Assembly: GCA_963676835.2 (NCBI GenBank)
Contig: CAXXFF010000002.1
Coordinates: 109,344 to 173,343 of the forward strand
Direction: 5' to 3'
Length of the DNA stretch: 64,000 nt
From: Marispirochaeta sp.
Lineage (GTDB): Bacteria > Spirochaetota > Spirochaetia > JC444 > Marispirochaetaceae
Shown here: positions 23,408 through 54,880 of the stretch, piece by piece
Numbering within the stretch: the first letter of the stretch is position 1
How the letters are laid out: each line of letters opens with the position of its first letter
The notes under the pieces: model-generated
Databases searched by the model: none
Told to the model about the DNA's origin: nothing
What the model saw: only the letters and a program-made list of their open reading frames with translations
Program-made: the position numbers and the translations under genes

Positions 23408-23450
23408 ACAAATCCTCCTGCTCTTAATATATATTTTTTCATATATAGCG

Positions 23451-35874: not shown

Positions 35875-37071
35875 TTGGTGTATACTTCCCCCATGGAAAG
35901 TTCCAGGGAGATCAGCAGTATAAAAAACAGGTTCCCCGAGAAGATGCTGGGCCATATAACAGAATGCATCGACCCCTTCGGCAGCGGTACAACGCTGACA
36001 GAAGCAATCAATTTCTTCAACGAGAACCCGGAGTATGGAGCCTGGCCGGTAGAGACAGAGAAGGGCAGCCTTGGAATAATTCCGCGGGATATTCTCCTGG
36101 AAAAAGGCAAGTCTAGGCTGGAGAAAATCCGGAACAGAAAGGCTGCTGATTTTTCTATTCCACGGATAAAAAGCTATGAAGCCCGGGATAACTGTCAGGC
36201 GGTGGCCGCAAAAATTGTTGAGAATGAAATCCGGACTGATACACTTATTATCTACAGCAACGGCACCTTTATGGGTATTATTCCGGTAAACCGACTCCTG
36301 AAACATGCTGCCCATCTTCGCAGCCGGGAACTCGGCTATGCCAGAGAGATTCAGGAATTTCTTCTCAGGCGCTCAAAACCGGAAGAACGAGGTTTTACCT
36401 ACCGATATCTGCTGAAACAGTCCAACGATATAGGGGGAGACTTTTACCAGGTAATCAAACTGGGAAACAGGACAGTCCTTGCCTCCTTTGACGTGAGTGG
36501 AAAGAATGTTTCTGCATCACTGGCAACATCCATGATAAGTGCGGTACTGGCAACCCTGGAAGAATCACCGGATCAGCAGCATAACCCTGCAGAGTTTCTC
36601 ACACTGTTTAATAATATTCTCTGCAAAATCACCCCCCTGGATCTCTTTGTGGCAGGTCTATTCTACTTCATCAGCCCCGAAAACAGTGAAGTGGAAATTT
36701 TTAATTTTGGATATTCCCGGATCTTCATAATTTCCCGGGGGGAAAATAGAACAGGCAGGATCACTGCCGCAGAACCGCAGCTTCGTCCTCTGGGAATTGA
36801 TGCAATTGATGATCCGGCGGTGCTGGAAAAGGTTAAACTTGTACTGTCAGGCCAAAACAGGCTGACTCTGGTAAGCTGGTCTGACGGACTGGAGGATATG
36901 CAGAACCCCATGGGCCGGAAATTCGGAGAGAAACGAATTGAAGATTTTGTACGGAAAAATTATGCCTTAAGCCCGGAGAGGTTTATAGCTGATCTGGAAC
37001 AAACCATTGATGAGTTTCGCCGGGACACGCCCCAGCCTGATGACATTACAGCCCTCTGTCTGAAACTGTAA
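35875..37071 (+). CDS. CBS-pair plus PP2C/SpoIIE-type serine phosphatase (RsbU-like)
   Basis: Two CBS-like units (WPVETEKGSLGIIPRDILL; GTFMGIIPVNRLL), then IGGDFYQV, FDVSGKNVSASL and DDITALCLKL. Start uncertain (TTG 35875 or ATG 35893). Confidence 0.8.
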   Translation: MVYTSPMESSREISSIKNRFPEKMLGHITECIDPFGSGTTLTEAINFFNENPEYGAWPVETEKGSLGIIPRDILLEKGKSRLEKIRNRKAADFSIPRIKSYEARDNCQAVAAKIVENEIRTDTLIIYSNGTFMGIIPVNRLLKHAAHLRSRELGYAREIQEFLLRRSKPEERGFTYRYLLKQSNDIGGDFYQVIKLGNRTVLASFDVSGKNVSASLATSMISAVLATLEESPDQQHNPAEFLTLFNNILCKITPLDLFVAGLFYFISPENSEVEIFNFGYSRIFIISRGENRTGRITAAEPQLRPLGIDAIDDPAVLEKVKLVLSGQNRLTLVSWSDGLEDMQNPMGRKFGEKRIEDFVRKNYALSPERFIADLEQTIDEFRRDTPQPDDITALCLKL

Positions 37072-37444: not shown

Positions 37445-37720
37445 TTAGTACTGAAACCGCCGTTCCCGGGGTTTCCGGTCGTTTGCTTCGCTGACCCGAA
37501 GTTCTCTTCCGTCGAGTTCCTGACCGTTGAGAGCGGAGATAGCAGCTTCTGCCGCATCATCCTCTTCCATCTCAACAAAGCCGAAGCCCTTTGAGCGGTC
37601 GGTGTAACGATCGGTGATGATTTTTGCGCTCAGAACCGCACCATACTGTGCGAAAGCCTGATTCAGCGCATCATCGGTGGTAGAGTAATTGAGATTACCC
37701 ACATAGATCTTTTTTGCCAT
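37445..37720 (-). CDS. RNA-binding protein (single RRM; RNP-1/RNP-2)
   Basis: RNP-2 IYVGNL and RNP-1 KGFGFVEM. GGAG lies upstream of the ATG at 37720. Confidence 0.9.
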   Translation of the reverse strand: MAKKIYVGNLNYSTTDDALNQAFAQYGAVLSAKIITDRYTDRSKGFGFVEMEEDDAAEAAISALNGQELDGRELRVSEANDRKPRERRFQY

Positions 37721-37973
37721 GATTCTACTCCTGTGCACCTGTTCTACAGGTAAACCTTAATTTATGTAACTTTGTGTTCCTTGCGGATAAAGACCAGTAC
37801 CAGAAAAAAGGAAGGTGCAATCGAGAGAAGCGCCATAGCGAGAACATAAGGCCGATAAGCAGTCTAGGACCTTTTAGAGAACCAGTATAGTACAAAGAAC
37901 AACAGCATACTCTTATGCCGTCATTTGGGTTACCTCTTCATCCTAGCAGAGATAGGTGGTGACGTCAAGCAGA

Positions 37974-39031: not shown

Positions 39032-40033
39032 ATGGCGTTTTTCGACCTGCCCCTGGAGGAACTTGCAATTTACCAGCCCGATGTCAAAGAACCTGATGAT
39101 TTCGATCAGTTCTGGTCGGATACTCTCTCGGAAAGCCGCAGTTTTGACTTGGATCCCCGGTTTGAGAAAAAAGATTTCGGTCTTACCCAGATAGAAACCT
39201 ACGATGTGAGTTTCCGGGGTTTTGCAGGACAGGAGATCAAAGGCTGGTTCCTGCTGCCCTCCGGAGCCGAGGGCCCTCTTCCGGGGATTGTGCAGTATAT
39301 CGGCTACGGCGGCGGCCGGGGCTTTGCCACGGACTGGCTGGGCTGGCCTGCCGCTGGTTACGGCTGTCTGGTAATGGATACCCGGGGCCAGGGATCAAAA
39401 TGGCGGAGAGGAGATACTCCCGACCTGGAACTCTCCGGCGGCAATCCCCAGTACCCGGGCTTCATGACCAGGGGTATTCTCAACCGCAATGACTATTACT
39501 ACCGCAGACTTATTACCGATGCAGTCAGAGCCGTGGAAACAATCCGCAGTCACCATAAAATTGACGGAGACAGAATTGCCCTTACAGGTATCAGCCAGGG
39601 AGGGGGTCTTTCCATTGCCGCTGCCGCCCTGGACGGAAAAGTTACCGCCGCAATGCCGGATGTTCCCTTTCTCTGCCATTTCCGCCGGGCATGCACCATT
39701 ACCGATATGCTACCCTATAAGGAGATCGCCGAGTTCTGCCACACCCACCGGGATAAAGAAGAGATAGTCTTCAACACATTGAACTATTTTGACAACCTCC
39801 ATTTTGCCAGACGGGCAGAGATGCCCGCGCTCTTTTCCACCGCCCAGATGGACCAGATATGCCCTCCTTCAACTGTCTATGCCGCCTATAACAGCTGGCG
39901 GGGAAAGAAAGAGATACGGACATATACCTTTAACGGTCACGAAGGGGGAGAAAGCTATCAGTTTCTCGAGCAGCTCTCTTTCCTGTCAGGAATGGCAAAA
40001 ATGACAAAAGCTGCCGGGCCAAACGGACAGTGA
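39032..40033 (+). CDS. CE7 acetyl esterase (acetylxylan esterase / cephalosporin-C deacetylase family)
   Basis: [25 protein letters not shown], nucleophile elbow [21 protein letters not shown], and His in FNGHEGG. Confidence 0.88.
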
Positions 40034-40380
40034 CAAAGGACTCTCTTCCGGGACTGCTGTTTCCGGTACTTACCGTTGCCCTACTGGCGGCAGGTCAGGT
40101 TTCCGCAAAATACGGTGCCTCCCTTAAAGCCGCTGGCAGCGGAGGTCTTCTCTATCTGCTCATTTCATACGGATGCTATATGCTCAGGGGAATTACCTGG
40201 GCAGGGACGCTGCGCCGCATGCCGGTAAGCCGGGCATACCCCTTACTGGCCGCTGGATATCCTCTTATTCTCATCCTTTCATTTGCGATTTTCCGGGAAG
40301 AGTTAAATGCCGTAAAAGCTGTGGGCGCCGCTTTCATTACCCTGGGAGTCATTCTTGCCGGAGCATCTTCTGATGAATAG
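40030..40380 (+). CDS. SMR/EamA-like small membrane protein, ArnE-like flippase subunit
   Basis: 116 aa, 4 TMS-like. The GTG start overlaps the esterase stop (GTGA). Confidence 0.65.
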
Positions 40381-40735
40381 CTGTACAGCCGCCGCAGAAG
40401 TAATTCTCACCGGGATAATAACCTCAACAGCACAGATCCTGCTGCGCCAGGCCGCCCCGAAGATTGTCTTTAACCGGGGACCGGTGAGTTTCATTGCTTC
40501 TGTTATCAATCCGCGTCTTGTAATCGGCGTATGTCTTGCCGCCGGGGCGCCACTGCTTTATTTTCATGCCCTCCAGACCCTTCCACTCTCCCTGGCCTTC
40601 GGCCTTTCAGCCCTCTCCTATATATGGGTACCCCTGGGAGGATGTCTCGTTCTCCGGGAACGCATTAACCGCCGGCGCCTTCTGGGAACTGCCGGCATCA
40701 TCACCGGACTGCTGATCTGGAGTATCGGGCTTTGA
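40373..40735 (+). CDS. SMR/EamA-like small membrane protein, ArnF-like flippase subunit
   Basis: About 120 aa, 4 TMS-like. The ATG at 40373 overlaps the preceding stop by 8 nt. Confidence 0.65.
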   Translation: MNSCTAAAEVILTGIITSTAQILLRQAAPKIVFNRGPVSFIASVINPRLVIGVCLAAGAPLLYFHALQTLPLSLAFGLSALSYIWVPLGGCLVLRERINRRRLLGTAGIITGLLIWSIGL

Positions 40736-41481
40736 AAATTACCCTGGTTATTCCCACATTTAACGGCTCCGAAGAGCTCAAGCGGCTTATGGAACAGGTG
40801 GAAGCAGTACTCGAACAGTCAGACTTTGCGGATTACGAAATAGTCCTGGTGGATGACGGAAGCTGCGGGGAATACCGGCTCTTTATTGAAGACAAACTGA
40901 TGCCGGAGCACCCCTGCCTGAGGGTACTCTACCTCCAGGGGAACTATGGGCAACAGCTTGCAACTATTACCGGACTAGCTCATGCCCGGGGAGATATAAT
41001 AGCCACCATGGATGATGACCTGGAACACCCCCCGGCACAGCTGACCACATTAATACAAAGTATCCGGGAAGGCAGCGACCTTGCTTATGGAATTGCCGAA
41101 ATTTCCTACGGTTCGCTGCTGAGAAAGTGGGGAGCCCTTCTCAGAGACCAGGTGTTTCGCCGCGTACTCAGGGTCCCTGCGGGGATACGGGTTTCAAGCT
41201 TCAGAGCCATGACCCGGGAGCTCGCCCTGGCGGTTATCGCCGGCCCCTGCCCCTGGCCCTACTTTTCCGCCATGGCCGTACGCCGCCATCCCCGTATTGC
41301 AAATATCGCCATGGATTTTCCCCGCAGAACCGACGGCAGGCAGAGAATTCTCCCTCTTGCCTTACTTCTGCTTAGAATCCTCCTGGCCTATTCTCTCCCG
41401 GGAGCAAAAAAGGCTCCACCGGTCAAGCTGCCTCCCCATGCGGAAATATTCTGCTCCCCCGCAGCGGGAGAGCTGCCGTGA
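40732..41481 (+). CDS. Family 2 glycosyltransferase (ArnC/GtrB/DPM1-like polyprenyl-phosphate glycosyltransferase)
   Basis: ITLVIPTFNGSE, EIVLVDDGS, IATMDDDLEHPP (DxD/ED region). The TTG start overlaps the preceding stop (TTGA). Confidence 0.85.
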   Translation: MKITLVIPTFNGSEELKRLMEQVEAVLEQSDFADYEIVLVDDGSCGEYRLFIEDKLMPEHPCLRVLYLQGNYGQQLATITGLAHARGDIIATMDDDLEHPPAQLTTLIQSIREGSDLAYGIAEISYGSLLRKWGALLRDQVFRRVLRVPAGIRVSSFRAMTRELALAVIAGPCPWPYFSAMAVRRHPRIANIAMDFPRRTDGRQRILPLALLLLRILLAYSLPGAKKAPPVKLPPHAEIFCSPAAGELP

Positions 41482-42722
41482 GTACAATCCTTGTATTGGG
41501 AGGCGGAAGCAGTCAGTTTTCGGGAATCCACCGCTGCCGCGAAATGGGACACCGGGTTATTGTTGCGGATATAAACGCGAATGCCCCGGGCTGTGCCCTT
41601 GCCAATGGCTTTGCGGAAGCCAGTACCTTTGATCCGATAGGGGTTATCCAGGCGGCAAAAAAACACAGGGCCGACGGGATTCTCACCATGGGAAGCGACC
41701 AGCCGGTCCTCACCCAGGCCATTGCAGCGGCCGAGCTGGGACTGCCGTCATTCCTTTCTCCGGAAGCAGCCCTGGCGGCAACCAATAAAAAAGCGATGAA
41801 GCTTCCACTCCGGTCGGCAGGCGTTCCGCTTGCCCCCTTTGATATCCTTTCAGCCGGAATCCGGCGGGTACCGGAGTCAATTAAACTCCCGGCAGTTATG
41901 AAACCCCTGGACAGCCAGGGCCAGCGGGGTATTTTTTACCTTACCCGGAGGGAGATTCCCCGGGAAAACATAGAGGAAACCCTCTCCTATTCGAGGCAGA
42001 CGGAATTTATAGTAGAAGAGTTTTATCCCGGAGGAGAGGTTACCCTCTCCGGCTGGCTCTGCGGGGGAGAACTGCAGGTGTTCAGTATCACCGACCGGGT
42101 AACCCGCCACCTGCTGCCCCGGCTGGGGGTTTGTTTTGCCCACCGTTTTCCCAGCATGTATGCAGACAGGAGAGCTGATATTACCGCTGTCGCCGAGGAC
42201 GCACTCAAGACCCTGAACATAACGGAAGGACCGGTTTACATACAGCTTTTTGTCGGCCCGGAAGGAATCGTTATTAACGAAGTAGCCTGCCGCCTTGGCG
42301 GTGCCTACGAGGATGAGTTTATACCTCTTATAACAGGTATAGATATCCTTGATCTGCTCATCCGGGGCAGCCTGGGTGAAAAAATACTGCCGGAAGAGAT
42401 TCGCCCTGCAATAACCAGCCCTCCGGCAGTGACTGTACCACTGCTCTTCTGCCGTCCGGGAAAAATAGATCACTGGCAGGGAACAGCTGAAGCCGCAGCA
42501 ATTCCAGGGATAGTGAATTATACACCGATTCTGCCGGCAGGCACCGTTATCGGCAACACGGAAAACTCTACCCAGCGGGCAGCCTACGCAATTATCAGCA
42601 GCCCCACTCCGGCGGAGGCAAACCTTTCTGTAGAGGAGTTTTTCCGCACCGCAGGCCCTGTTGATGAAGAAGAAAACCCCATGTTTATCGATTCCCGCCA
42701 TGAGATGTGCTTTCCTTTTTAG
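41478..42722 (+). CDS. ATP-grasp domain ligase
   Basis: ILVLGGGSSQ, NKKAMK, LPAVMKPLDSQGQRGIF, VEEFYPGGEVTLSGW, INEVACRLGG. The GTG start overlaps the GT2 stop (GTGA). Confidence 0.8.
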   Translation: MSTILVLGGGSSQFSGIHRCREMGHRVIVADINANAPGCALANGFAEASTFDPIGVIQAAKKHRADGILTMGSDQPVLTQAIAAAELGLPSFLSPEAALAATNKKAMKLPLRSAGVPLAPFDILSAGIRRVPESIKLPAVMKPLDSQGQRGIFYLTRREIPRENIEETLSYSRQTEFIVEEFYPGGEVTLSGWLCGGELQVFSITDRVTRHLLPRLGVCFAHRFPSMYADRRADITAVAEDALKTLNITEGPVYIQLFVGPEGIVINEVACRLGGAYEDEFIPLITGIDILDLLIRGSLGEKILPEEIRPAITSPPAVTVPLLFCRPGKIDHWQGTAEAAAIPGIVNYTPILPAGTVIGNTENSTQRAAYAIISSPTPAEANLSVEEFFRTAGPVDEEENPMFIDSRHEMCFPF

Positions 42723-42760
42723 TGTTATTTCTTAACGCCTTTCTCCGATCTCTCCGCTCT

Positions 42761-42796
42761 CTTCGATCACTTCGATAACTTCGATAACTTCGATCT
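42761..42796. repeat. Four copies of CTTCGAT at a strict 9-bp period
   Basis: cttcgatca cttcgataa cttcgataa cttcgatct, in the 136-nt gap between the ATP-grasp gene and the ABC substrate-binding gene. Confidence 0.9.
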
Positions 42797-42857
42797 TTAT
42801 GTTTCCGGCCCGGGAACTCTTTACTGCCGCCATGCCGAAAAGGTATTCTGAAGTTCT

Positions 42858-43868
42858 ATGACAGGATTTCCGGGTTTAACCAGCAGCTTTACAAGCTTTA
42901 CGTCAGGCAAATTATTTCGAATCATTACCTCTGCTCTGATACTTCTTTCAGCAGGACTTTTTTTCAGCTGTTCCGGTAAAGACAGCACCCAAACCCTGCG
43001 TATCGCAGAGCAGTATGGTCTGGCCTATGCTCCCCTTCAGCTTATCCGCCTGGAGAAACAGCTTGAAGAAGCAGGAATAAAGACGGAATGGGTCAAACTG
43101 ATCAACACCGCCTCCATCCGGGAAGCCATGCTGGCCGGCAGGGTGGATATCGGCTTTATGGGGATTCCCCCGTTTCTCATCGGCCGGGATAAAGGTATGG
43201 ACTGGAAGATTTTCACCGGACTCTGCCGGGCGCCCCTGGGGCTGGTCAGCCGCAACAGGGAACTCAACAGCCTCGCAGACTTAAGAGCGGAAGACAGAAT
43301 AGCCCTTCCCCAGCCGGGAAGTATTCAGCATATTCTTCTCTCCATGGCCGCCGAAAGGGAACTGGGGGACAGCCGCCGCTTCGACTCCAGGCTGGTTACC
43401 CTCTCCCACCCCGACGGATTTTCCGCACTCTCGAAGGGCAGCGGCATCAGCGCCCACTATACATCGCCCCCCTATCTGTTCGAGGAGCTTAAACTTAAGG
43501 GAGCACGACTGCTTTCGGACGGAGAAACAGCCTTCGGCGGCCCTTTTACCTTTATTGTGGGAGTTGCCCGGGGAAATCTGTCTATGGAAAAACAGAAACT
43601 GCTGCGGAACTTCAATCGTATTCTAATAGCAGCCATGGAACGTTTTGAATCAGATCCTGAAAGCACCATACAAACTCTGAAATCAGAATACGCCATTTCC
43701 GAGTCCCTGCTCACTGAGTACCTCCTATCCGAAGGGCTTGAATACACTCCGGAAATTCTGGGAGTAGAACGGTTTCAGGATTTTATGTACACCTCAGCGT
43801 TGATAGAATCTTCTCCGGCGAAAATTGATTCACTTATCCTGAAAGTGGCCGGAGAAGTACAGCAGTGA
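42858..43868 (+). CDS. NitT/TauT-family ABC substrate-binding lipoprotein (NMT1/SsuA-like)
   Basis: Lipobox FFSCSG. The PBP type-2 pattern is LRIAEQYGLAYAPL..AGRVDIGFMGIPPF. Confidence 0.75.
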   Translation: MTGFPGLTSSFTSFTSGKLFRIITSALILLSAGLFFSCSGKDSTQTLRIAEQYGLAYAPLQLIRLEKQLEEAGIKTEWVKLINTASIREAMLAGRVDIGFMGIPPFLIGRDKGMDWKIFTGLCRAPLGLVSRNRELNSLADLRAEDRIALPQPGSIQHILLSMAAERELGDSRRFDSRLVTLSHPDGFSALSKGSGISAHYTSPPYLFEELKLKGARLLSDGETAFGGPFTFIVGVARGNLSMEKQKLLRNFNRILIAAMERFESDPESTIQTLKSEYAISESLLTEYLLSEGLEYTPEILGVERFQDFMYTSALIESSPAKIDSLILKVAGEVQQ

Positions 43869-44659
43869 AAATCTCAGGATTTCTTAATTCCCTGAAAAAA
43901 ACTGCAGTCCGCCTCCTGATTTTCCTGCTGACAGGTCTGATCTGGGAAATCACCCGCAGGGCAAGCGGAGCACCGGAGGCACTGTTTCCTTCAATACCTG
44001 CAATTCTGAACCGACTTGCCATAGCCGTATTCAATGAGGATCTGAAAGAGCAGATACTCTTTTCCCTGATACTTATCGGTTCAGGCCTTGCCGCCGGTTC
44101 TGTAACCGCCGCCTTTCTGGTTTTCCTTGCAGAACTGCACCCCGTCATGGGAAAGGCAGTTGATACCGCTGCCGCTGTATTCCACCCCCTGCCGGGGATT
44201 GCCCTCCTGCCGGTGGTAATACTCTGGTTCGGCACCGGAATTCCTGCAGTACTTATTATAATCGTCCACTCTGTTCTCTGGCCCCTGACGGTGAATCTGA
44301 AAAGCGGGTATGAAAACCTGCCAGCCACATGGAGAATGGTGGCGGATATCTTCGGGTATTCCCCTGCAGAACGGTTTTTCCGCATAACCCTTCCCGGCTC
44401 CTTTCCTTTTGTGCTGTCAGGCCTCAAGATCGCCTGGGCAAGAGCCTGGCGGGCCCTCATCAGCGCCGAAATGGTTTTTGGTGCCGTAGCCTATGCCGGA
44501 GGGATCGGCTGGTTTATTTTTTCCCGGAGGATATTCATGGATACCGCCGGCATCTTTGCGGGGATTCTGGTGGTAGTCGCCCTGGGACTCATTGTCGAGC
44601 AGGGCCTGTTCCGCCCCCTTGAAAAAGCCGCCCGGAAAAGATGGGGAACCCTGCCGTGA
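43865..44659 (+). CDS. NitT/TauT-family ABC permease
   Basis: EAA-loop region ADIFGYSPAERFFRITLPGSFPFVLSGLKIAWARAWRALISAEM. Confidence 0.85.
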   Translation: MKISGFLNSLKKTAVRLLIFLLTGLIWEITRRASGAPEALFPSIPAILNRLAIAVFNEDLKEQILFSLILIGSGLAAGSVTAAFLVFLAELHPVMGKAVDTAAAVFHPLPGIALLPVVILWFGTGIPAVLIIIVHSVLWPLTVNLKSGYENLPATWRMVADIFGYSPAERFFRITLPGSFPFVLSGLKIAWARAWRALISAEMVFGAVAYAGGIGWFIFSRRIFMDTAGIFAGILVVVALGLIVEQGLFRPLEKAARKRWGTLP

Positions 44660-45393
44660 AGAACCTTCTCTCCTTCAGAAACACCCGTATTGAATATCCC
44701 GGAAGCCCTCGGCCGGTACTGCAGAATTTTTCCATGGAGCTTAAACAGGGAGAACTCCTCTGCGTTCTCGGACCATCGGGCTGCGGAAAATCCACCCTGC
44801 TTAAAGCCGCTGCAGGCCTTATCTCTCCCGCAAAGGGCAGTATAACTCTATCACCGTCATCTCCGGAGAGGCTGTACCCGCGGGTTCTGGTACTTCAGCA
44901 GGAGGATCAGCTCTTTCCATGGATGACTGTAGAGGATAATGCCGGCATTCCCTTGAAAAGAGGGGGAAACAAAAACTGGCGGCAGAAAACACGGGAAATC
45001 CTTGCATCCCTTTCCATGGGGGATGCCGCCGGACTCTATCCGCACCAGCTTTCCGGGGGTATGCGGCAGAGGGCGGTCCTGGCCAGGGCCCTTGCCGCGG
45101 AACCGGAACTGCTGATGCTCGATGAACCCTTTGCCCATCTGGATGCCTCGGTGCGCTCATCCCTGCAGCATCTGGTAACAGATATCTGGCAGCAAAAAGA
45201 GAGCATGCCTTCCACGATTCTGTTTGTTACCCACGATATACAGGAAGCCCTGGTTCTGGCCTCAAGGATTCTGCTGTTTGACAGTAAAGGAAATATCCGG
45301 GAAGACAGAATAATAGAACTCCCCCGTCCGCGGGATCCCTTTGACGAAGAACTTGTTGCCATGGTCAGGGAAATCAGGAATCTCCTGGACTGA
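44641..45393 (+). CDS. NitT/TauT-family ABC ATP-binding protein
   Basis: Walker [10 protein letters not shown], signature LSGGMRQR, Walker B LLMLDEPF. Confidence 0.9.
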   Translation: MGNPAVKNLLSFRNTRIEYPGSPRPVLQNFSMELKQGELLCVLGPSGCGKSTLLKAAAGLISPAKGSITLSPSSPERLYPRVLVLQQEDQLFPWMTVEDNAGIPLKRGGNKNWRQKTREILASLSMGDAAGLYPHQLSGGMRQRAVLARALAAEPELLMLDEPFAHLDASVRSSLQHLVTDIWQQKESMPSTILFVTHDIQEALVLASRILLFDSKGNIREDRIIELPRPRDPFDEELVAMVREIRNLLD

Positions 45394-46963
45394 AATCGAG
45401 CCGGTAGATTCGAACCTTCCACTCTTCCCGGTAGCGGTAGGCAGCAATCCTCATCCCGTAACCCGGGCTGGAAAACTCTTTTATAAGAGTGCCATCATTT
45501 TTCAGCAGCTCCTTCATTTCCGGATACCAGTAGGCAATATTGCCGTACAGTACATTCCACACCGGTCTGCGGGAATAAATAAAATCCAGCTCATCCGACA
45601 GAATTACATACTCTACAGACCGTTCCTTCAGGTACTCATCCAGACTGATTCCCGCAGAGCGGAGTTCCGCAAGATTTCTCCAGTCATAAAACTGCCCACC
45701 CGTCCCGGTCACATATTCGCCATAAAGATTACTCACTACTGTAGAATCCGCAGACACCACATCCCGGATCTCTCCCATAAAGGACTGAAAGGACTCGGTC
45801 TCCCGGGAAATATCAGACAGGGAAAACCGGATATTTGCGGCCAAAAGAAGAACCGGAATCACCAGCAGGAGTTTTTTCAGCATGAAATTCCCCGCAGGAA
45901 GAAGCGCACCGTAGATCCCCAGGTAAAAGAAAGGCAGGAGAAAAACGATTGAAGGCTGACTGTACTTACCAATAAGTGCCACAGCTATTGAAAAGCCCGC
46001 AAAGCCTGCCAGGGGCAGAGAATTACGGTTCCGGAAAAAATCGATAGTCAGAACCAGGGGAAACAGCAGCATCTGCAGCATAATCGGCGGAGTATGATAG
46101 GTCCCGCCTATGCGGAAAAACAGCTTTTTATAGAAAGCGGGAAGTCTCAGCCATTTAATATCCGCCGGCTCCAGAACACCCAGAGGCCTGCCGTAGGCCA
46201 GATAATCAGAAATAAACGATGCATTAAAAAGGAAGCTGAGCAGCACAAAAACCGACGCAAAAATCCCCGTAGACAGAAGAAAAAGAAGCCCCTCTTTTAG
46301 GGTCCGTTTTCTTAACCCGATTGAGACCAAAAGAAAAAGTCCTGCCGGCCAGGCAATAATAAAAGCATTGGGATGAAAACCGGCAGCAAGCCCCGTCACC
46401 GCCCCGGCAAAAAAGCCGCGCTTACCCGGGGGTAAATCATTTTTTGTCAGAAGAACCAGAACAGCAGTTTCCAGCAGAAGCAGCAGACTCTCCTGCCTGG
46501 CAAAATGGCTGCTGTAGATAAACTGAATATCCGCAGCCATTAGTAGGAGCATAAAAATTCGCAGGAATTCTGATCTTCTGTTTTCCGCCTCATTCCGCCC
46601 CTCCCCGCCATTGCCGGGAGAGATATTGTGCAGAAGACGCCAGAATAAGAGCAGACTTACTGTTCCGGCCAGAAGTGAGAGAAGCCGCACAGCAAAAAGG
46701 CTGTAGCCGAAGAGCAGAACAAAGGGTATCTGCAGCAGATGGTAGAGTATTTTTATTGCATGGGGATGCCGGGGATAAAGATCAAAGAAGTCTTCCGTTG
46801 CAGCAGGAGATCCGGCATCCATCATGGAGAGGGTAAGCCCGCTCAGCCATGGCTCATCGGTATGAACAAAAGGATAGGTATCCAGAAAAAGCAGGTTTAC
46901 GGCAAACCACGACAGAGCGATAAAAATGACTATATGAGCTTCGCGGAGTTTACAGTCGACCAT
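45374..46963 (-). CDS. GT-C fold membrane glycosyltransferase (ArnT / PMT_2 / GT39-83-like) with soluble C-terminal domain
   Basis: About 11 TMS. First-loop acidic motif FVHTDEPW, and a C-terminal soluble domain of about 150 aa. The start is 1 nt downstream of the tauB-like stop. Confidence 0.7.
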   Translation of the reverse strand: MVDCKLREAHIVIFIALSWFAVNLLFLDTYPFVHTDEPWLSGLTLSMMDAGSPAATEDFFDLYPRHPHAIKILYHLLQIPFVLLFGYSLFAVRLLSLLAGTVSLLLFWRLLHNISPGNGGEGRNEAENRRSEFLRIFMLLLMAADIQFIYSSHFARQESLLLLLETAVLVLLTKNDLPPGKRGFFAGAVTGLAAGFHPNAFIIAWPAGLFLLVSIGLRKRTLKEGLLFLLSTGIFASVFVLLSFLFNASFISDYLAYGRPLGVLEPADIKWLRLPAFYKKLFFRIGGTYHTPPIMLQMLLFPLVLTIDFFRNRNSLPLAGFAGFSIAVALIGKYSQPSIVFLLPFFYLGIYGALLPAGNFMLKKLLLVIPVLLLAANIRFSLSDISRETESFQSFMGEIRDVVSADSTVVSNLYGEYVTGTGGQFYDWRNLAELRSAGISLDEYLKERSVEYVILSDELDFIYSRRPVWNVLYGNIAYWYPEMKELLKNDGTLIKEFSSPGYGMRIAAYRYREEWKVRIYRLDFSPGDS

Positions 46964-46964
46964 A

Positions 46965-47729
46965 TCAGGCCCAGATATACTTGAGAACTTCCTCTCTCAG
47001 GGCGACAAACTCAGGTAAAGATTTTATCTCCCGGCTGTCCCGGTCGGAGTAACCGGAGCTGAACGGCGTCTCCACCTTCTGCAGAATCCGTCCGGGAAGT
47101 TCAGACATCACATAAACCTGAGTGGAGAGATAAATAGCTTCTTCAACGCTGTGAGTAATGAATAACACAGTTTTCCGGGTTTCCCTCCACAGGCTCAGGA
47201 GCTCTTCCTGAAGGTGCTCACGGGTAAGAACATCCAGCGCTCCGAAGGGTTCATCCATGAGCAGAATATCCGGATCATTGGCAAGAATCCGGGCAATGGC
47301 TACCCGCTGCTGCATTCCCCCCGAAAGCTCATAGGGCTGCATGTGGCCGAAATCCGACAAATGAACCCTGCGCAGGTTCTCCTCAACAATTCTCTTCTGC
47401 TCCGATCTGGCAACTCCCCGCATTTTCAGCCCGAAGGCGACATTCTGTTCCACATTGAGCCATGGATAGAGGGAGGGCTTCTGGAATACTATCCCCCGGT
47501 CCTTTCCGGGGGCTGTCAGGGGGGCACCCTTTTCCATAATCGTACCCCTGGTCGGGGGAAGAAACCCGCCGATAACGTTAAGCAGGGTCGACTTTCCGCA
47601 GCCCGAAGGGCCGACAATACTGATAAAATCACCCTGATTCACCGTCAGGGAAACATCCTGTACCGCGGAAAGAGGACCCTTTTTTGTCTCAAAGTCTACG
47701 GATATCCCGGAGAGTTCCAGAAGATTCAA
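46965..47729 (-). CDS. tauB: Taurine-type (NitT/TauT) ABC ATP-binding protein
   Basis: [29 protein letters not shown]. Confidence 0.85.
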
Positions 47730-47733
47730 ACTG

Positions 47734-48762
47734 CTACTGCCCCAGAGCCTCTTCTATATACTCAGGATGAAGAGCCGCCTTGAAGGCATCAATATCGGGA
47801 GACGAGATAATGGTCTGCTGGGTAACCAGAAAATCCGCAGTTGCCTTCAGCACACCGGCAAGATCTCCGATCTGCCCCTGTGTTCCCATATACCGGGAGG
47901 AGATCTGGTCTTCTCCGGTCAGCAGCACCAGACTTTTCATCTGCCGGGCAGCCTCTGCCTCGGGAATATCGAACTGACGGCTTACTGCAGCAGCAGCCTC
48001 ACTGCTGTTTTCATTGTAAAAATCTACAGCACGGATCTCGCTCTTTATATACTTTGTCACCAGGTCGGGGTATTTTTCGGCGAACCCCTTTCTAACCACG
48101 GTAATATCTCCGGTAAGGTATCCGGCCGCTGCCAGTTTTCTGGAGTAGACAACAACCTTACCGCCACTCTCAACCATTTTTGCAAGAGTGGGCTCCCAGA
48201 TAAAGCTGCCGTCAATATCTCCCCGGTGCCAGGCTGCCAGGGCATCAGGAGGCTGCATATCAAAAATATCAACAGTTTCGGGATCTACCCCTTCAAGCTC
48301 CAGGGCTGCCAGCAGATGATAATGAGTGGTTGCACCAAAGGGAACAGCAATCTTCTTGCCCGCAAGGCTCTTTACATCGGTAATGCCAGAATCGTTTTTA
48401 ACCACCAGAGCCTCATTGTCTCCGATAATATCGTGTATCCAGATCACATCGAAGGGAACCTTGTTGGCAATACCCGCAGCAATTCCACTGCTTCCGGAAA
48501 GACCGATATCAATACTTCCCGCGGCAAGGCCAGTATTGAGTTCTGATCCCGAGTTCAGCTGAACCCATTCCACCAGAATACCGGTCTCCTCTTCGAACCA
48601 ACCAAAATCCTTGGAGATTATCTGGCCGTTTGGTATGGCCTGAAATCCGATAACGATCTTTTCCGGAGCACCGGAAGCGGATTCTTTATTCCCTGCAGCT
48701 GCAGCATCAAGTGCAAACAGTGCAAGAAGAGACAGCAGTACGATTCCTTTCTTCATAGTCAA
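47734..48762 (-). CDS. tauA: TauA-like taurine/sulfonate-binding periplasmic protein
   Basis: Blocks I recognise from E. coli TauA: GDNEALVVK, GKKIAVPFGATTHYHLLAAL, QPPDALAAWHRGDIDGSFIWEP, VVRKGFAEKYPDLV. Confidence 0.8.
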   Translation of the reverse strand: MTMKKGIVLLSLLALFALDAAAAGNKESASGAPEKIVIGFQAIPNGQIISKDFGWFEEETGILVEWVQLNSGSELNTGLAAGSIDIGLSGSSGIAAGIANKVPFDVIWIHDIIGDNEALVVKNDSGITDVKSLAGKKIAVPFGATTHYHLLAALELEGVDPETVDIFDMQPPDALAAWHRGDIDGSFIWEPTLAKMVESGGKVVVYSRKLAAAGYLTGDITVVRKGFAEKYPDLVTKYIKSEIRAVDFYNENSSEAAAAVSRQFDIPEAEAARQMKSLVLLTGEDQISSRYMGTQGQIGDLAGVLKATADFLVTQQTIISSPDIDAFKAALHPEYIEEALGQ

Positions 48763-48822
48763 TCCTCTTGTTCTTTATATTTTTCTGCCCTTTATACAAG
48801 GCCTCTTATACCTGTTGGATTT

Positions 48823-49614
48823 TTATACTTTCCCTTTCCAGGGAACGATCATCAGCTCGGCTATCCGGATAATCCTGTCCAGAATTATCCCGGTTATTCC
48901 CATAACAATAATCCCCATAAACATCACATCGCCCCGTAAGAATTTTCCCGCATCAAGCACCATCCAGCCGATACCGGAACGTGCCGCCACAATCTCCGAG
49001 GAGACAAGGGTGGTGTAGGTAAATCCTATACTGACCCGCATCCCGGTGAAAATACCCGGCAGACAGGAGGGAAAAATAACATGTACTAAAGTCTTCCATT
49101 TCCCCGCCCCGAGAGACCGGGCAACATGCACTCTCTCCATGGGGACAGAGGCAACAGCCGCCATGGCATTAATAGACAAAGGAGGAAAAGCAGCCATAAA
49201 AAGAAGGGTGATCTTCGATGCATTGCCAATGCCCAGCCATATAACCAGAATAGTGTAGTACGCCAGAGGCGGAAGGGGCCGGTAGAATTCAACCAGGGGA
49301 TCAAAAACTGCCTTCACCTTTCTGCTGTAGCCCATAAACATGCCTAAGGGGATGGCCACAATACAGGCTAAAAGAAAACCGGAAATAACCCGAAACAGAC
49401 TGTCCCCTAAATGGTCCAGCAGTGTTCCTCCCCGGTACCCGTTAAGTGCGATATCCTTGAAGGCCTGAAAGACGCTGGCAGGAGTTGGGATAAAGTACTC
49501 GGGGAAAATCTTCAGACCGGCAATAACCGTCCAGGCCAGTAAAATGGCCAGAACCGACAGTACCGAGATAATAAATTCACTTATTCTTTCTTTATCGTAC
49601 TTCTTCATTCCCAT
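48823..49614 (-). CDS. tauC: Taurine-type (NitT/TauT) ABC permease
   Basis: EAA-loop ARSLGAGKWKTLVHVIFPSCLPGIFTGMRVSIGFTYTTLVSSE. Confidence 0.85.
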   Translation of the reverse strand: MGMKKYDKERISEFIISVLSVLAILLAWTVIAGLKIFPEYFIPTPASVFQAFKDIALNGYRGGTLLDHLGDSLFRVISGFLLACIVAIPLGMFMGYSRKVKAVFDPLVEFYRPLPPLAYYTILVIWLGIGNASKITLLFMAAFPPLSINAMAAVASVPMERVHVARSLGAGKWKTLVHVIFPSCLPGIFTGMRVSIGFTYTTLVSSEIVAARSGIGWMVLDAGKFLRGDVMFMGIIVMGITGIILDRIIRIAELMIVPWKGKV

Positions 49615-49650
49615 AAGCGTCCAAGTACAGGATATAACCTATAATAATAA

Positions 49651-49687
49651 AAAAAGGGGGTCAGTTCACGGAACCGACCCCTTTTTT
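49651..49687 (-). terminator. Bidirectional-looking rho-independent terminator after the yeeE-like gene
   Basis: A7 then GGGGTC agttcacggaacc GACCCC then T6. Confidence 0.7.
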
Positions 49688-49699
49688 CTTGTGCTTAAA

Positions 49700-50983
49700 T
49701 CAGTTAACGCAGCTTGCCGCCGTTTTTCTGGCAACCACGTTGCCGATGATTCCTCCGCCTGTCAGGGCTGCAAGGAAAATCCATCCCGAAAGGGAAAAGT
49801 TGGCAATGGGAGTATACAGAGCACCCACGTTGCAGCCGTTGGCAAGACGGGTTCCAAATCCCATAAAGAGACCGCCCATGGCGAAGAACACAACCTGCAA
49901 AGGCTTAACCTTAAGCTCCGAGGTGAAAGTTGCCTTGAAGGTACCTGCCAGAAGAAGAGCTATAAGAGTACCAAGCACAATGCCTATGTTCTGCACCGAA
50001 ACGGGATTAACAAAAATGGATGTTTCAAAAAAGCCTGCCGGCATATGGGTAAATGCTGCAATGGATTCTGAAGAAACTCCAAAGAGCATCAGAAGCTTGC
50101 CAAACCACATACCGTAAACAGTGGAAGCCCCCCACCCTGCTTTTGTAATACCCATAAGCAGAGAAAAGACCACGGCAATTACAATTGCCCCGGTTCGCAT
50201 CTGCCAGGGACGGACAAAAAGCATATCATAGGTCTCACTGCTGAAAAGCTTGAAGGGTTTTGCAGCTCCCCGCTCTTCAAGAAGCCTGTTCTGCTCAAGC
50301 TCTGTTCCTACACCGGAAAACCGGTTCGCAGCAATCTGCTTATCTTCATATTTCCTGGCAAGCCAGGCGACCAGAGCCGCCAGCAGCACAGTAAGAATCA
50401 CCGCACCAAGGTAACCGCTCATACCGTCCCACATAAACAGATCCGGAAGATAGACACCGCCGGCAAGCTGCTCGCCGGTAACGGTGGAAAACCAGGAATC
50501 CGTAACCCATGATGCGGTCTTCTGTACAGGAAACCCGATAAAAACTCCAAAAGCGAAGAACACCAGGGTGGCTGCTGCCCGGGGAAGTCCGGTCACCAGG
50601 TCGGTAAGTACTCCCGAAGCACAGCACGAGGAAAAGGTCATACCGAAACCGAAGGAAAGACCACCGAGGATAAGCCCCAGGTTAATAGGGTTAACCCACA
50701 GGTTGTAGCTTGTGGCGTCTACTCCGTAGAGAAAAGCCACTGATACTGCAGCAGTTCCGGCAAACATCCACATAAGTACCCGCATCAGCTTTGCTGACCC
50801 GGTTCTGTATGCCCGGTTAACGCTTCCGGCAAAGCCCATAAAGGCCCGGGTCAGGGCATAGCCGAACCCGATTCCCGCCAGCAGCCGGAAGAAGAGCATC
50901 TGGGTACCCAGAAAAGCTCCGCCGAAAATCAGTACAACTGCAATCAGGGCAAAGCCCAGAATATTCTCAATTTTACTGTTCAT
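49700..50983 (-). CDS. YeeE/YedE family sulfur-compound transporter (long, 427 aa)
   Basis: Two sulfur-transport repeats with conserved Cys motifs: FSSCCASG and LANGCNVGALY. Confidence 0.85.
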   Translation of the reverse strand: MNSKIENILGFALIAVVLIFGGAFLGTQMLFFRLLAGIGFGYALTRAFMGFAGSVNRAYRTGSAKLMRVLMWMFAGTAAVSVAFLYGVDATSYNLWVNPINLGLILGGLSFGFGMTFSSCCASGVLTDLVTGLPRAAATLVFFAFGVFIGFPVQKTASWVTDSWFSTVTGEQLAGGVYLPDLFMWDGMSGYLGAVILTVLLAALVAWLARKYEDKQIAANRFSGVGTELEQNRLLEERGAAKPFKLFSSETYDMLFVRPWQMRTGAIVIAVVFSLLMGITKAGWGASTVYGMWFGKLLMLFGVSSESIAAFTHMPAGFFETSIFVNPVSVQNIGIVLGTLIALLLAGTFKATFTSELKVKPLQVVFFAMGGLFMGFGTRLANGCNVGALYTPIANFSLSGWIFLAALTGGGIIGNVVARKTAASCVN

Positions 50984-51001
50984 TCTGTGATCATCCCTTT
51001 A

Positions 51002-52702
51002 TCAGTCAAAGTTGTAACCGGTGAGTATGGGTTCCCTTCCGCTTACCTGATCATTGTAGTATTCGAAAAAGGAAATTCCCATAAATCCGCCGGAAATATT
51101 TATTACTTCATCCCAACCGCGGTTTTTCAGCGCCATAACAGCATTGTAACTTCTCTGTCCGCTTCGGCAGTGCAGGTAAATCGGCTTGTCTTTGGGGAAC
51201 TCATCAAGCCGTTCTCTGAGCTGACTCAGGGGAATATTAACCGCACCCTTAAGATGTGACTGTTCATATTCGTAGACTTCCCGAACATCAAAGATAGCAG
51301 CCCCGCTTTCTACCAGGCCCCGGACATCGCTGACATTTACCTGCCGGAAATCATCATGGAGAAGGTTGGTTCCTACATAGCCTGCAAAGTTAACCACGTC
51401 TTTTGCGGTGCCGAAGGGGGGCGCATAACAGAGCTCAAGGTCTTTCAGATCATGGATGGTTCCGTTGAACTTGATCACCGTTGCAATTACATCGATTCTC
51501 TTGTCAACATTTCCTTTTCCAATTGCCTGGGCTCCAAGGATTTTTCCGGTGGGGATTTCATACACAAGCTTGAAATGAAGGCTCTTGCTGGAAGGCATAA
51601 GCCCGACCTTGTCTCCGGGAATAATACGTACACAGCTGTAATCGATCTTCAAACCGCTGTGCTGAATAAATCCACAGGTCAAACCAGTGGAGGCGGCATT
51701 GTAATCAAACACCTTCAGAATTGAAGATCCGATATAGCCGCGGTTATCCACATACTGCTTATTGATATGGTCCGCAACACTTCTGGCCTGTTTCTGTGCC
51801 GGTCCGGCCAGGGGAAGCTTGAAATAGTCGTCAAAAAGGTAGCTGTATACTTCAATGGCATCACCAACAGCGTAGATATCCTTGTCTACTGTCCGGTAAT
51901 TCTGGTCCACCTTCATTGCACCGGTTTTTCCGAGCTCAAGGCCGGCCTGTTTTGCAAGATCTGTTTCCGGAGAAACTCCGATTGCCATTATTACAATGTC
52001 AGTTTCGATTTTCTTGCCCGATTCAAGAAGAATCGCATTGGTATCGAAAGCGGTCACCTTGTCGTCTACTATAAGGTTTACGCCCTGATCATGAATCTCC
52101 TTGTGGAGAATCTGCACCATATCGTAATCGAGGATTCTCAGAATCTGGGGCATAGCCTCAACGAGGGTCACTTCGTAACCGGCCTCTTTCAGGTTTTCAA
52201 CCGTTTCGATTCCGATAAATCCACCGCCGATTACACTGATCTTCTTAACATCCTTATTTCTGATTGCTTTGGCAATTTTAGCAATGTCTACTACATTTCG
52301 AATGGTGTAATGATTTACCTTCTCAATACCAGGAATAGGGGGAACAATAGGTTTTCCGCCGGGAGAGAGTATCAGCTTGTCATAAGACTCGGTATAGGTC
52401 TTTCCTGTATCAAGATCGGCAACAGTGACTTCTTTGGCCTCTCTGTTAATCGCAACAACTTCATTATTTATACGTACATCAATATTGTACTGTTTCTTGA
52501 AGAGCTCAGGCGTCATAAGGACAAGATCTTCAGCCTTTTCGATCATTCCGCTCAGATGATAGGGAAGACAACAGTTGGAAAAGGATACGTTCGGACCTTT
52601 CTCAAATACAATTATCTGATCTTCTTCACTGTGTCTTCGAAGCCGTGCAGCAGCTGATGCACCTCCGGCAACACCGCCGACAACAAGCATTTTTCTTGAC
52701 AT
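51002..52702 (-). CDS. CoA-disulfide / persulfide reductase with C-terminal rhodanese domain (Npsr-like)
   Basis: VVGGVAGGASAA, active-site SFSNCCLPY, a second NAD(P)H GxGxxG (VIGGGFIGIE), and rhodanese IYLHCRSGQRS. Confidence 0.88.
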   Translation of the reverse strand: MSRKMLVVGGVAGGASAAARLRRHSEEDQIIVFEKGPNVSFSNCCLPYHLSGMIEKAEDLVLMTPELFKKQYNIDVRINNEVVAINREAKEVTVADLDTGKTYTESYDKLILSPGGKPIVPPIPGIEKVNHYTIRNVVDIAKIAKAIRNKDVKKISVIGGGFIGIETVENLKEAGYEVTLVEAMPQILRILDYDMVQILHKEIHDQGVNLIVDDKVTAFDTNAILLESGKKIETDIVIMAIGVSPETDLAKQAGLELGKTGAMKVDQNYRTVDKDIYAVGDAIEVYSYLFDDYFKLPLAGPAQKQARSVADHINKQYVDNRGYIGSSILKVFDYNAASTGLTCGFIQHSGLKIDYSCVRIIPGDKVGLMPSSKSLHFKLVYEIPTGKILGAQAIGKGNVDKRIDVIATVIKFNGTIHDLKDLELCYAPPFGTAKDVVNFAGYVGTNLLHDDFRQVNVSDVRGLVESGAAIFDVREVYEYEQSHLKGAVNIPLSQLRERLDEFPKDKPIYLHCRSGQRSYNAVMALKNRGWDEVINISGGFMGISFFEYYNDQVSGREPILTGYNFD

Positions 52703-53881: not shown

Positions 53882-53937
53882 CGGGATAGTTAATAGTCTC
53901 TCACAAGAGATCGATTTTTGTTCAAGGAGATCATTGT

Positions 53938-54858: not shown

Positions 54859-54880
54859 TTTATTCCACCGTTTTTATTCA

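Follow-up and report, generated by a model that had tools for sequence, protein, structure and literature searches.

A gene cluster of Marispirochaeta sp. combines RdlA-type extracytoplasmic rhodaneses with a predicted lipid-carrier glycosylation arm

Why do genes that appear to build and export a lipid-carried sugar lie among genes for substrate importers in a spirochaete? The question is raised by positions 39032-49614 of a 64-kb stretch of the Marispirochaeta sp. genome (64,000 nucleotides of contig CAXXFF010000002.1, assembly GCA_963676835.2), referred to below as the window. A survey of open reading frames (ORFs) in the window confirmed 12 tightly packed genes with uninterrupted reading frames in this region, all of them listed in an initial annotation. 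That annotation had proposed that an imported amine or sulfonate, possibly taurine, is ligated to a lipid-linked uronic acid and delivered to the cell envelope. This study found that the region is part of a bigger conserved cluster, occupying approximately positions 39032-54903, since genes for a YeeE transporter, a fusion of coenzyme A (CoA)-disulfide/persulfide reductase and rhodanese, and two extracytoplasmic rhodaneses (49700-54858) also belong to it. The best explanation of the cluster, to which a probability of about 0.6 is assigned, is that a sugar bound to a lipid carrier and bearing an amide is passed on, on the outer side of the membrane, either to the rhodaneses or to their envelope partner.

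A search seeded with the GT-C-fold glycosyltransferase of the cluster recovered 80 loci, one per species, from Spirochaetota and Bacillota (Spirochaetia, Halanaerobiales and many Clostridia); the counts out of 40 given throughout refer to those of them with at least 6 kb on both sides. A rhodanese gene is found next to the GT-C gene in 40 out of 40 loci, and this dominant association with sulfur import and reduction was missed by the initial annotation. An ATP-grasp ligase is encoded in 38 loci and a family 2 glycosyltransferase (GT2) in 35, most of the rest having the GT2 and the ligase fused in a single protein. YeeE-type transporters occur in 32 loci, LysR regulators in 27, DegT-family aminotransferases in 23 and CoA-persulfide reductases in 14. 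An independent search of metagenome contigs, seeded with the ATP-grasp ligase, gave 22 loci with enough room, of which all 22 contain the GT2 gene, 21 the GT-C gene and 20 the gene of the second rhodanese (Rhd2). In three Clostridia loci, obtained by sampling from the rhodanese side, the genes form one co-directional operon in the order YeeE half, TusA, YeeE half, thioredoxin reductase (TrxR)-like reductase, rhodanese, probable four-domain rhodanese, GT-C, (DegT), GT2 and ATP-grasp.

The initial annotation had made its proposal depend on co-conservation of the genes in related genomes, and they do travel together, as the numbers for the ATP-grasp ligase and the GT2 show. The combination recurs in dozens of species of two phyla, far beyond chance, and the persistence of the neighbourhood despite gene order and orientation that vary widely between lineages points to a functional link. 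Homologues of the GT-C protein assign the window to Spirochaetales, and its closest relative is the chromosome of a Marispirochaeta metagenome-assembled genome, which is fully syntenic with it, with 66% identity in the GT-C protein and 65-94% in its neighbours. Clustering of ORFs also revealed families that are present in relatives and absent from the cluster of the window, namely the DegT aminotransferase, dTDP-glucose 4,6-dehydratase, TusA-like carriers, split YeeE and the TrxR-like reductase.

The two rhodanese genes are divergent from the reductase gene and encode lipoproteins. Rhodanese 1 (52958-53881, plus strand; PF00581) contains two rhodanese domains, the active-site Cys252 and a lipobox cysteine, Cys22; the lipobox is found in 56 of 64 orthologues. 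Rhodanese 2 (53938-54858, plus strand; PF00581) has a lipoprotein signal peptide and two active-type domains, with Cys121 and Cys260. All these active-site cysteines are conserved among orthologues. Carriers of the cluster include Dethiosulfatibacter, Halanaerobium and Sediminispirochaeta, which we take to be thiosulfate or sulfur reducers. The rhodanese pair of the window is 44-47% identical to that of Halanaerobium congolense, and the Rhd2 orthologue of this bacterium is UniRef Q6Q1E1, a 2004-era entry deposited as ‘Rhodanese’. Presumably this entry is the RdlA of Ravot et al. 2005. The H. congolense orthologues are identical to the marker rhodaneses of thiosulfate reduction in Data Set S2 of the Halanaerobium shale study, where thiosulfate reduction was documented and rhodaneses were more abundant with thiosulfate (PMC5497025); sulfur reduction has likewise been documented for S. 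smaragdinae (PMC3035371). By their sequences, the window proteins thus appear to be RdlA-type extracytoplasmic rhodaneses of thiosulfate-reducing anaerobes, the name RdlA being applied here on presumption. The NCBIfam family ‘rhoda_near_glyco’ (NF045521) was considered and rejected, with a score of about 41 bits against a cutoff of 145. Literature searches revealed no account of a glycosylation arm attached to RdlA-type rhodaneses, or of the cluster.

The remaining genes of the sulfur module are located on the minus strand. The YeeE/YedE-family transporter (49700-50983; 427 amino acids; PF04143, 170.6 bits) is a predicted sulfur transporter of the thiosulfate type. The reductase fused to a rhodanese domain (51002-52702) is most similar to PDB entry 3icr (E 1.5e-151) and also matches Npsr (3nta) and a CoA-persulfide reductase (8a56); overall, matches to Bacillus anthracis CoADR-RHD, Npsr and CoAPR range from E 1e-130 to 1e-151. 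Some variation of this module among relatives can be mentioned. In many Clostridia, including loci L167, L170 and L171, the Rhd2-type protein is duplicated, with a length of about 530 amino acids, from which the presence of four domains was read, and in L170 a methyltransferase gene is inserted between the genes of this rhodanese and of the GT-C enzyme. In Desulfitobacterium sp. THU1 (L086) one rhodanese is replaced by a protein of the C_GCAxxG_C_C family, and the selenocysteine genes selA and selB are immediate neighbours of the sugar operon. Several weak NCBIfam matches to selenium-related families were obtained for the rhodaneses and YeeE.

The glycosyltransferase next to which the rhodaneses are encoded is a membrane protein of 529 amino acids (45374-46963, minus strand), annotated as GT39- or ArnT-like in relatives, of which 330 were found in genome species representatives. 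Its family membership is weakly marked in the sequence: PMT_2 (PF13231) scores 20.1 bits against the Pfam cutoff of 26.1, and there is no NCBIfam match at E <= 1e-3. Many orthologues carry precomputed PF13231 or PF02366 matches. The sole match of its profile to PDB sequences was spurious and was discarded. The AlphaFold model is confident (predicted local distance difference test score, pLDDT, 92), and a Foldseek comparison with PDB gave 17 matches at E <= 1e-3, the first 16 being to STT3, ArnT, ALG12 and ALG9 with template modelling (TM) scores of 0.5-0.6. Because of these matches of a confident model, the protein is taken to be a true GT-C enzyme, the match to ArnT being at the level of the fold only (TM about 0.5, 12% identity). 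Its first outer loop contains an invariant H-[ST]-D-E-x-W motif, in which D36 and E37 are nearly invariant, and a soluble domain is located at the C-terminus. By homology, the catalytic loop faces outward.

The sugar acceptor on the inner side of the membrane could be a polyprenyl phosphate. The GT2 protein (40732-41481, plus strand; 249 amino acids; PF00535, 86.8 bits) finds its best PDB sequence matches in ArnC, dolichol-P-mannose synthase (DPMS) and GtrB. It contains a DDD motif, with D41, D42 and D94-D96 conserved in 46 orthologues, and one C-terminal amphipathic hydrophobic helix (residues 206-224). These features allow the protein to be classified as a predicted polyprenyl-phosphate glycosyltransferase of the ArnC/GtrB/DPMS type, with a GT-A domain, a DxD motif and a membrane-interface helix.

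The ATP-grasp ligase (41478-42722, plus strand) has an LAL_C2 (L-amino-acid-ligase C-terminal) domain, with scores of 45.2 bits for PF18603 (cutoff 29.4) and 27.9 for PF13535 (cutoff 27). The public gene call of 392 amino acids starts at 41544, 22 codons after the GTG at 41478 that opens a 414-amino-acid ORF; the longer form overlaps the GT2 stop codon by 4 nucleotides, and the alignment of orthologues begins at its residue 3 or 4. The predicted model (pLDDT 95) is similar to RizA, BL00235 and YwfE (Foldseek TM 0.66-0.78), with PurT and PurK at similar values and the biotin carboxylase fold about as close as the L-amino-acid ligases. The structural comparison is consistent with a carboxylate-amine ligase.

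The ligase is the constant partner of the GT2 and a core member of the system, as its assignment to the system in the initial annotation had anticipated. Besides the co-occurrence in 38 of the 40 loci, fusions of the two proteins are frequent: four database proteins contain both Pfam domains (the complete sequences of three of them were inspected), long fused ORFs are found in eight loci, and for about two dozen among the 150 best cluster representatives both length and match position fit a fusion. The ATP-grasp part is attached to the C-terminus of the GT2, and the hydrophobic helix of the latter comes to lie between two cytoplasmic domains. This arrangement implies that the helix is interfacial rather than membrane-spanning, and the geometry of the fusions would bring the ligase close to the lipid-linked sugar on the surface of the membrane.

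Further genes of the related loci give an indication of the sugar. In most Firmicutes-type loci a DegT-family aminotransferase gene directly precedes the GT2 gene, and two spirochaete loci also contain a gene of this type. Representatives of this family score above the NCBIfam cutoffs for WecE (522 bits against 375, and 465 against 435), and some loci also carry RmlB, for which a representative dehydratase scores 473 bits against a cutoff of 365. Since both the WecE-type and the RmlB proteins exceed their cutoffs, the donor in those Firmicutes organisms is very probably deoxythymidine diphosphate (dTDP)-4-amino-4,6-dideoxyhexose and not a uronic acid. Being an amino-deoxyhexose, this sugar would supply the amine of an amide rather than receive an imported amine. 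No gene for uridine diphosphate (UDP)-glucose dehydrogenase or another uronate-forming enzyme was found among the conserved families or in the Pfam-annotated neighbourhoods of the loci. The reported lack of the Arn tailoring enzymes holds for the region of the window, where there is no homologue of ArnA, ArnB or ArnD, but not for the wider system, which includes an analogue of ArnB in the WecE-type aminotransferase.

The place occupied by the aminotransferase gene in Firmicutes is taken in spirochaete-type loci by genes of two small membrane proteins. In the window these adjacent genes encode proteins of 116 amino acids (40030-40380, plus strand) and 126 amino acids (40355-40735, plus strand), each with several hydrophobic helices. 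Their best NCBIfam names are ArnF and ArnE, respectively, both below the cutoffs (44.8 bits against 99 for the former, 37.2 against 92 for the latter), and both are EamA-like (E 2e-4 for the former; 26.8 bits against a cutoff of 28.2 for the latter). They could represent the candidate halves of a flippase for the lipid-linked sugar. Taken together, the GT2, the small membrane pair and the GT-C enzyme fit, by family and fold assignments, the Arn/Gtr-like undecaprenyl-phosphate sugar scheme put forward by the initial annotation. The small EamA pair is found in 10 of the 40 loci, and a profile hidden Markov model built from orthologues of the 116-amino-acid protein matches spirochaete-type loci only. 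The pair and the DegT aminotransferase are mutually exclusive: 24 loci have only EamA proteins, 73 only DegT, and none both. The two occupy the same site upstream of the GT2 gene, and the split follows lineage.

The first gene of the region, encoding an acetyl esterase of carbohydrate esterase family 7 (CE7, AXE1 family; 39032-40033, plus strand), is of a different standing. The assignment itself is clear (PF05448, E 2.7e-114, 381.7 bits across positions 1-319 of 321, with a GxSxG motif reading GISQGG); the protein is without a signal peptide and its gene overlaps the next one by 4 nucleotides. It was found only in the window and its Marispirochaeta relative, that is, in 1 of the 40 loci, and is a lineage-specific accessory outside the conserved core, contrary to its inclusion in the system by the initial annotation.

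Two ATP-binding cassette (ABC) importers are encoded within the region. In the crystal structure of Escherichia coli TauA, taurine is contacted by Gln30, Gly61, Gly79, Glu106, Thr132 and Asp205 (PMC6906117), which provides a basis for comparing the two binding proteins. Importer A, present in 31 of the 40 loci, consists of a lipoprotein substrate-binding protein of the NitT/TauT (SsuA/NMT1) family (42858-43868; TIGR01728, 72.9 bits against a cutoff of 163.5; lipobox FFSC), a permease (43865-44659; PF00528), whose gene directly follows that of the binding protein in a conserved order, and an ATPase (44641-45393; PF00005, 112 bits), all on the plus strand. Its binding protein keeps one of the six TauA contact positions, the main-chain Gly at 90, which is Ala in most relatives; at the four positions of side-chain contacts it has the small or hydrophobic residues A, P, I and I instead. 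The selenoprotein-associated ABC system SAO, which provided the best NCBIfam names for the subunits of importer A, was considered and rejected, as the scores for SaoA (175.6 against a cutoff of 360) and SaoP (68.5 against 295) indicate no relationship beyond the family level. The SAO system (SaoA/P/X) includes no rhodanese and no glycosyltransferase (10.1101/2022.07.06.499078).

Importer B, encoded on the minus strand, comprises a TauB-like ATPase (46965-47729; NF008421, 281.9 bits, cutoff 357), a TauA-like binding protein with a signal peptide (47734-48762; TIGR01729, 235 bits, cutoff 304; E. coli TauA 6ssy, E 2e-46) and a TauC-like permease (48823-49614; NF007545, 223.7 bits, cutoff 342). 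The binding protein keeps all six taurine contacts (Q41, G72, G90, E117, T145 and D219); in the orthologues of Halanaerobiales and Clostridia, Gln30 is changed to Leu and Asp205 to Asn. A TauA-type importer is present in 15 of the 40 loci, in the company of YeeE and the CoA-persulfide reductase. TauCAB is a component of the sulfur module, not of the sugar arm, and its ligand may be a sulfur carrier resembling taurine, for example hypotaurine or thiotaurine, instead of taurine destined for desulfonation. The TauA-like transporter shares its context with the CoA-persulfide reductase, and no tauD is present. The proposed tie between importers and sugar genes is thus retained for importer A but not for importer B. 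The tauB and GT-C genes of the window do lie 1 nucleotide apart on the same strand, as had been described, but gene maps show that tauCAB adjoins the GT-C gene only in close relatives of the window spirochaete; elsewhere the GT-C gene follows rhodanese genes or heads an operon with DegT, GT2 and ATP-grasp.

These data allow a pathway to be proposed. The GT2 would place a sugar on undecaprenyl phosphate, using in most Firmicutes the dTDP-4-amino-4,6-dideoxyhexose made by RmlB and the WecE-type enzyme. The ATP-grasp ligase would then form an amide at the cytoplasmic face of the membrane, most simply by N-acylation of the 4-amino group of the sugar by a carboxylate, and importer A may provide a substrate of the ligase. 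The lipid-linked sugar could be flipped by the ArnE/F-like pair and moved by the GT-C enzyme to an extracytoplasmic acceptor, either the co-encoded rhodaneses or an envelope component that aids the capture of sulfane sulfur from thiosulfate or polysulfide. The captured sulfur would be imported and reduced to sulfide by the sulfur module, represented here by YeeE, the CoA-persulfide reductase and TauCAB, and elsewhere by TusA, split YeeE and the TrxR-like reductase. The rhodaneses, or their working partner, would be the likeliest acceptor, because operons with the gene order Rhd-Rhd-GT-C exist, because the GT-C enzyme combines GT39-like annotation with the D-E motif, and because monoderm and diderm hosts have no envelope polymer in common.

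Several observations weigh against this explanation. Neither a DegT nor an RmlB homologue was found anywhere in the 64-kb window, and the similarity of the window proteins to ArnE/F and ArnC is far under the family cutoffs. The Firmicutes loci contain no flippase candidate. At one sampled locus the sulfur module and the two rhodaneses are encoded with no sugar arm nearby, and in Oceanispirochaeta the cluster is apparently split over two sites, as seen in two assemblies (L004 and L169). One site carries Rhd1, the reductase, YeeE, TauCAB and GT-C, and the other Rhd2, importer A, ATP-grasp, GT2 and two small genes (112 and 120 amino acids, no Pfam match) where the EamA pair would be expected. Consequently, rhodaneses can be encoded apart from the sugar genes.

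Among other explanations, a general remodelling of the envelope has to be considered, in which a cationic or amide-decorated amino sugar is attached to a bulk polymer or lipid (a lipopolysaccharide-like glycolipid, teichoic acid or membrane glycolipid) and the rhodaneses are not the target. The sugar genes would be co-regulated with sulfur genes only since the modification shields the cell against sulfide and polysulfide or attracts anionic sulfur species. To our knowledge, glycans or lipids of the envelope are the targets of all characterised bacterial systems in which a GT2 is combined with a small membrane protein and a GT-C enzyme, and the presence of ArnC among the closest solved relatives of the GT2, of ArnT among the top fold matches of the GT-C enzyme, and of a LysR regulator embedded in 27 of the 40 loci would agree with such a role. 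However, co-regulation would not require the unusually tight adjacency to rhodanese genes, including Rhd-Rhd-GT-C operons in two phyla, and the diderm and monoderm hosts share no common polymer that could be the acceptor; this explanation is considered unlikely, though far from negligible. A slim chance is given to the conjugate being itself a carrier of sulfane sulfur, produced by ligation of cysteine or another acid with a thiol group to the amino sugar and displayed outside by the GT-C enzyme as the sulfur acceptor of the rhodaneses. A thiophilic acceptor is required by rhodaneses, but the cluster encodes none that would serve outside the membrane; the ligase is similar to L-amino-acid ligases, the amino sugar is made next door in Firmicutes-type loci, and TusA-type sulfur carriers are interleaved with the sugar genes. 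On the other hand, the folds of PurT, PurK and biotin carboxylase are equally close to that of the ligase, and we know of no thiol-bearing amino-sugar conjugate of this kind.

The chemistry of the initial annotation, that is, ligation of imported taurine, or another amine or sulfonate, to a polyprenyl-linked uronic acid, followed by trimming by the CE7 esterase, flipping and transfer to the envelope, appears very unlikely. The fully retained taurine contacts of the TauA-like protein and the contiguity of tauCAB with the GT-C gene in the window do speak for it, and the lack of an aminotransferase in spirochaete-type loci leaves room for a non-amino sugar. Nevertheless, TauCAB tracks YeeE and the CoA-persulfide reductase (15 of the 40 loci) and adjoins the GT-C gene in close relatives only, two contacts are changed in the Firmicutes TauA orthologues (Gln to Leu and Asp to Asn), importer A retains only one of the six, the esterase is confined to 1 of the 40 loci, uronate-forming genes are missing from the conserved families and annotated neighbourhoods, and orthologous ligases directly follow WecE-GT2 in Firmicutes, where the WecE-type and RmlB enzymes point to an amino-deoxyhexose. 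Least probable of all is the lack of any functional link, the sugar and sulfur genes being neighbours by descent or chance. The locus with a sulfur module and no sugar arm and the apparent split in Oceanispirochaeta would be expected in this case, but the neighbourhood has survived extensive rearrangement of order and orientation across two phyla, was recovered from two independent seeds, and forms a single operon in some genomes.

The plus-strand genes at 39032-45393 converge with the minus-strand GT-C and tau genes, the 3' ends of the importer A ATPase (plus) and GT-C (minus) genes overlapping by 20 nucleotides (45374-45393). As there is no terminator between the convergent operons, transcription of each side would enter the other. 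A terminator-like hairpin with an 11-bp stem and a T run (49657-49681, minus strand), located between the YeeE and tauC genes, suggests the presence of two transcription units, and another (54880-54903, plus strand) ends the rhodanese operon. Transcription units were delimited from these two strong hairpins; a promoter scan of the window gave 22 sites against 16 +/- 4.8 in shuffled background, which is no excess. Rfam and tRNA scans of the window gave no matches.

Outside the cluster, the window encodes a thioredoxin-reductase-like flavoprotein (22427-23539, minus strand) with 34% identity to the TrxR-like reductase found in the clusters of other lineages, here located 16 kb from the cluster. 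In a protein of 1640 amino acids (30807-35729, minus strand), starch-synthase (GT5) and GT1 domains are joined to a segment with weak similarity to alpha-amylases; among proteins of glycogen or alpha-glucan metabolism a fusion of this size is unusual. Its gene adjoins the cluster in the Marispirochaeta relative too. The left flank also contains genes for a SpoIIE/PP2C phosphatase (35875-37071, plus strand) and an RNA-recognition-motif (RRM)-type RNA-binding protein of 97 amino acids (37445-37738, minus strand), which are syntenic in the Marispirochaeta relative and not beyond it.

Fermentative anaerobes such as Halanaerobium, Sediminispirochaeta and many Clostridia produce sulfide from thiosulfate or sulfur without the classical respiratory reductases, a process that sours oil and gas reservoirs and corrodes steel and for which the rhodaneses serve as a genetic marker. 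The finding that genes of RdlA-type rhodaneses are almost invariably accompanied by those of a dedicated lipid-carrier glycosylation arm, comprising GT2, ATP-grasp and GT-C, and often a WecE-type aminotransferase and an importer, provides a lead, since it leaves two alternatives: the rhodaneses could be glycoproteins, or sulfur could be captured with the help of a new glycoconjugate of the cell surface. The analysis also delimits a large GT-C subfamily, a family of ATP-grasp ligases and the common fusions of GT2 with the ligase. There is, further, a small chance that the glycoconjugate participates actively in the transfer of sulfur outside the cytoplasm and is not a passive decoration. An aminoacyl-amino-sugar, possibly thiol-bearing like mycothiol and bacillithiol, would then be built on the lipid carrier, fixed by the GT-C enzyme to the rhodaneses or the membrane, and would deliver to the importers the sulfane sulfur taken from thiosulfate or polysulfide. 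Fermentative anaerobes would then possess a cofactor, or a post-translational modification, of a kind new to dissimilatory sulfur metabolism.

Regarding the known systems, the cluster most resembles Arn. The order of steps would be the same, beginning with a DegT-family aminotransferase (in related loci), after which the amine of the sugar is N-acylated, a GT2 loads undecaprenyl phosphate, a candidate flippase pair of small 4-helix membrane proteins follows and a GT-C enzyme completes the transfer. Among proteins of solved structure the GT2 is most closely related to ArnC, and ArnT is one of the top fold matches obtained for the GT-C enzyme. ArnD acts on a lipid-linked intermediate, and the ligase of the cluster seems to be placed likewise. 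However, the components are far under the Arn equivalog cutoffs, the GT2 scoring 73.3 bits with the ArnC model NF007986, whose cutoff is 529, and NCBIfam gave no match to the GT-C enzyme. ArnC has two C-terminal transmembrane helices, and its solved chains are 322-363 residues long, whereas the GT2 of the cluster has 249 amino acids and one hydrophobic helix. The cluster lacks ArnA and ArnD; the nucleotide sugar would be formed via dTDP-6-deoxyhexose by RmlB and WecE, rather than via UDP-glucuronate, the WecE-type enzyme of related loci belonging to the ArnB superfamily, and the ATP-grasp ligase replaces the folate-dependent formyltransferase of Arn. Moreover, the cluster occurs in monoderm Clostridia, which have no lipid A, and is tied to rhodaneses. 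Because the Arn equivalog tests fail, it is not considered a member of Arn.

The same division of labour is known from GtrA/B/C, CsbB/GtcA/YfhO, GacI/J/L, LgmA/B/C and FlmF/FlmK, where a GT2 forms an undecaprenyl-phosphate monosaccharide, a small membrane protein assists or flips it, and a GT-C enzyme transfers the sugar outside. These systems, which modify O-antigen, teichoic acids, rhamnan or lipid A, all lack an ATP-grasp ligase, a dedicated ABC importer and rhodaneses. A second point of comparison is GT39 protein O-mannosylation by Pmt and Ppm1 in Actinobacteria. Relatives of the GT-C enzyme are annotated as GT39, some of them matching PF02366 or PF13231, and the acidic D-E pair is located in the first outer loop; Pmt modifies secreted proteins and lipoproteins, and the constant neighbours of the cluster are secreted or lipoprotein rhodaneses. 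On the other hand, the window enzyme is under the PMT_2 cutoff and has no MIR domain, its fold agrees less well with solved Pmt structures than with STT3 and ArnT, the donor would probably be an amino-deoxyhexose instead of mannose, and glycosylation of rhodaneses is putative.

On the side of sulfur metabolism, the rhodanese pair of the window is orthologous to the proteins tracked in the thiosulfate-dependent sulfide production of Halanaerobium (RdlA-type thiosulfate reduction), and a YeeE-family protein and a reductase-rhodanese fusion link the cluster to YeeE/YeeD thiosulfate uptake and to the CoA-persulfide reductases Npsr and CoAPR; no published account of these systems that mentions an attached glycosylation arm was found. 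The sugar chemistry finds a parallel in the Fuc4NAc branch of enterobacterial common antigen (RmlB, WecE and WecD), since RmlB and the WecE-type transaminase of related loci would likewise yield dTDP-4-amino-4,6-dideoxyhexose for subsequent N-acylation, in this case by an ATP-grasp ligase instead of an acetyl-CoA transferase. ATP-grasp enzymes are known to form sugar amides. In the amidoligase reaction of the Campylobacter jejuni HS:2 capsule the sugar is the carboxylate partner, whereas in the cluster it is more likely the amine partner, and in contrast to both these pathways the transfer would proceed via undecaprenyl monophosphate and a GT-C enzyme, not by polymer assembly. By analogy, the system seems to work according to the scheme of Arn, Gtr, Lgm and Flm with non-Arn enzymes, and would broaden the Arn/Gtr scheme by a sugar and a biological role that are both new to it.

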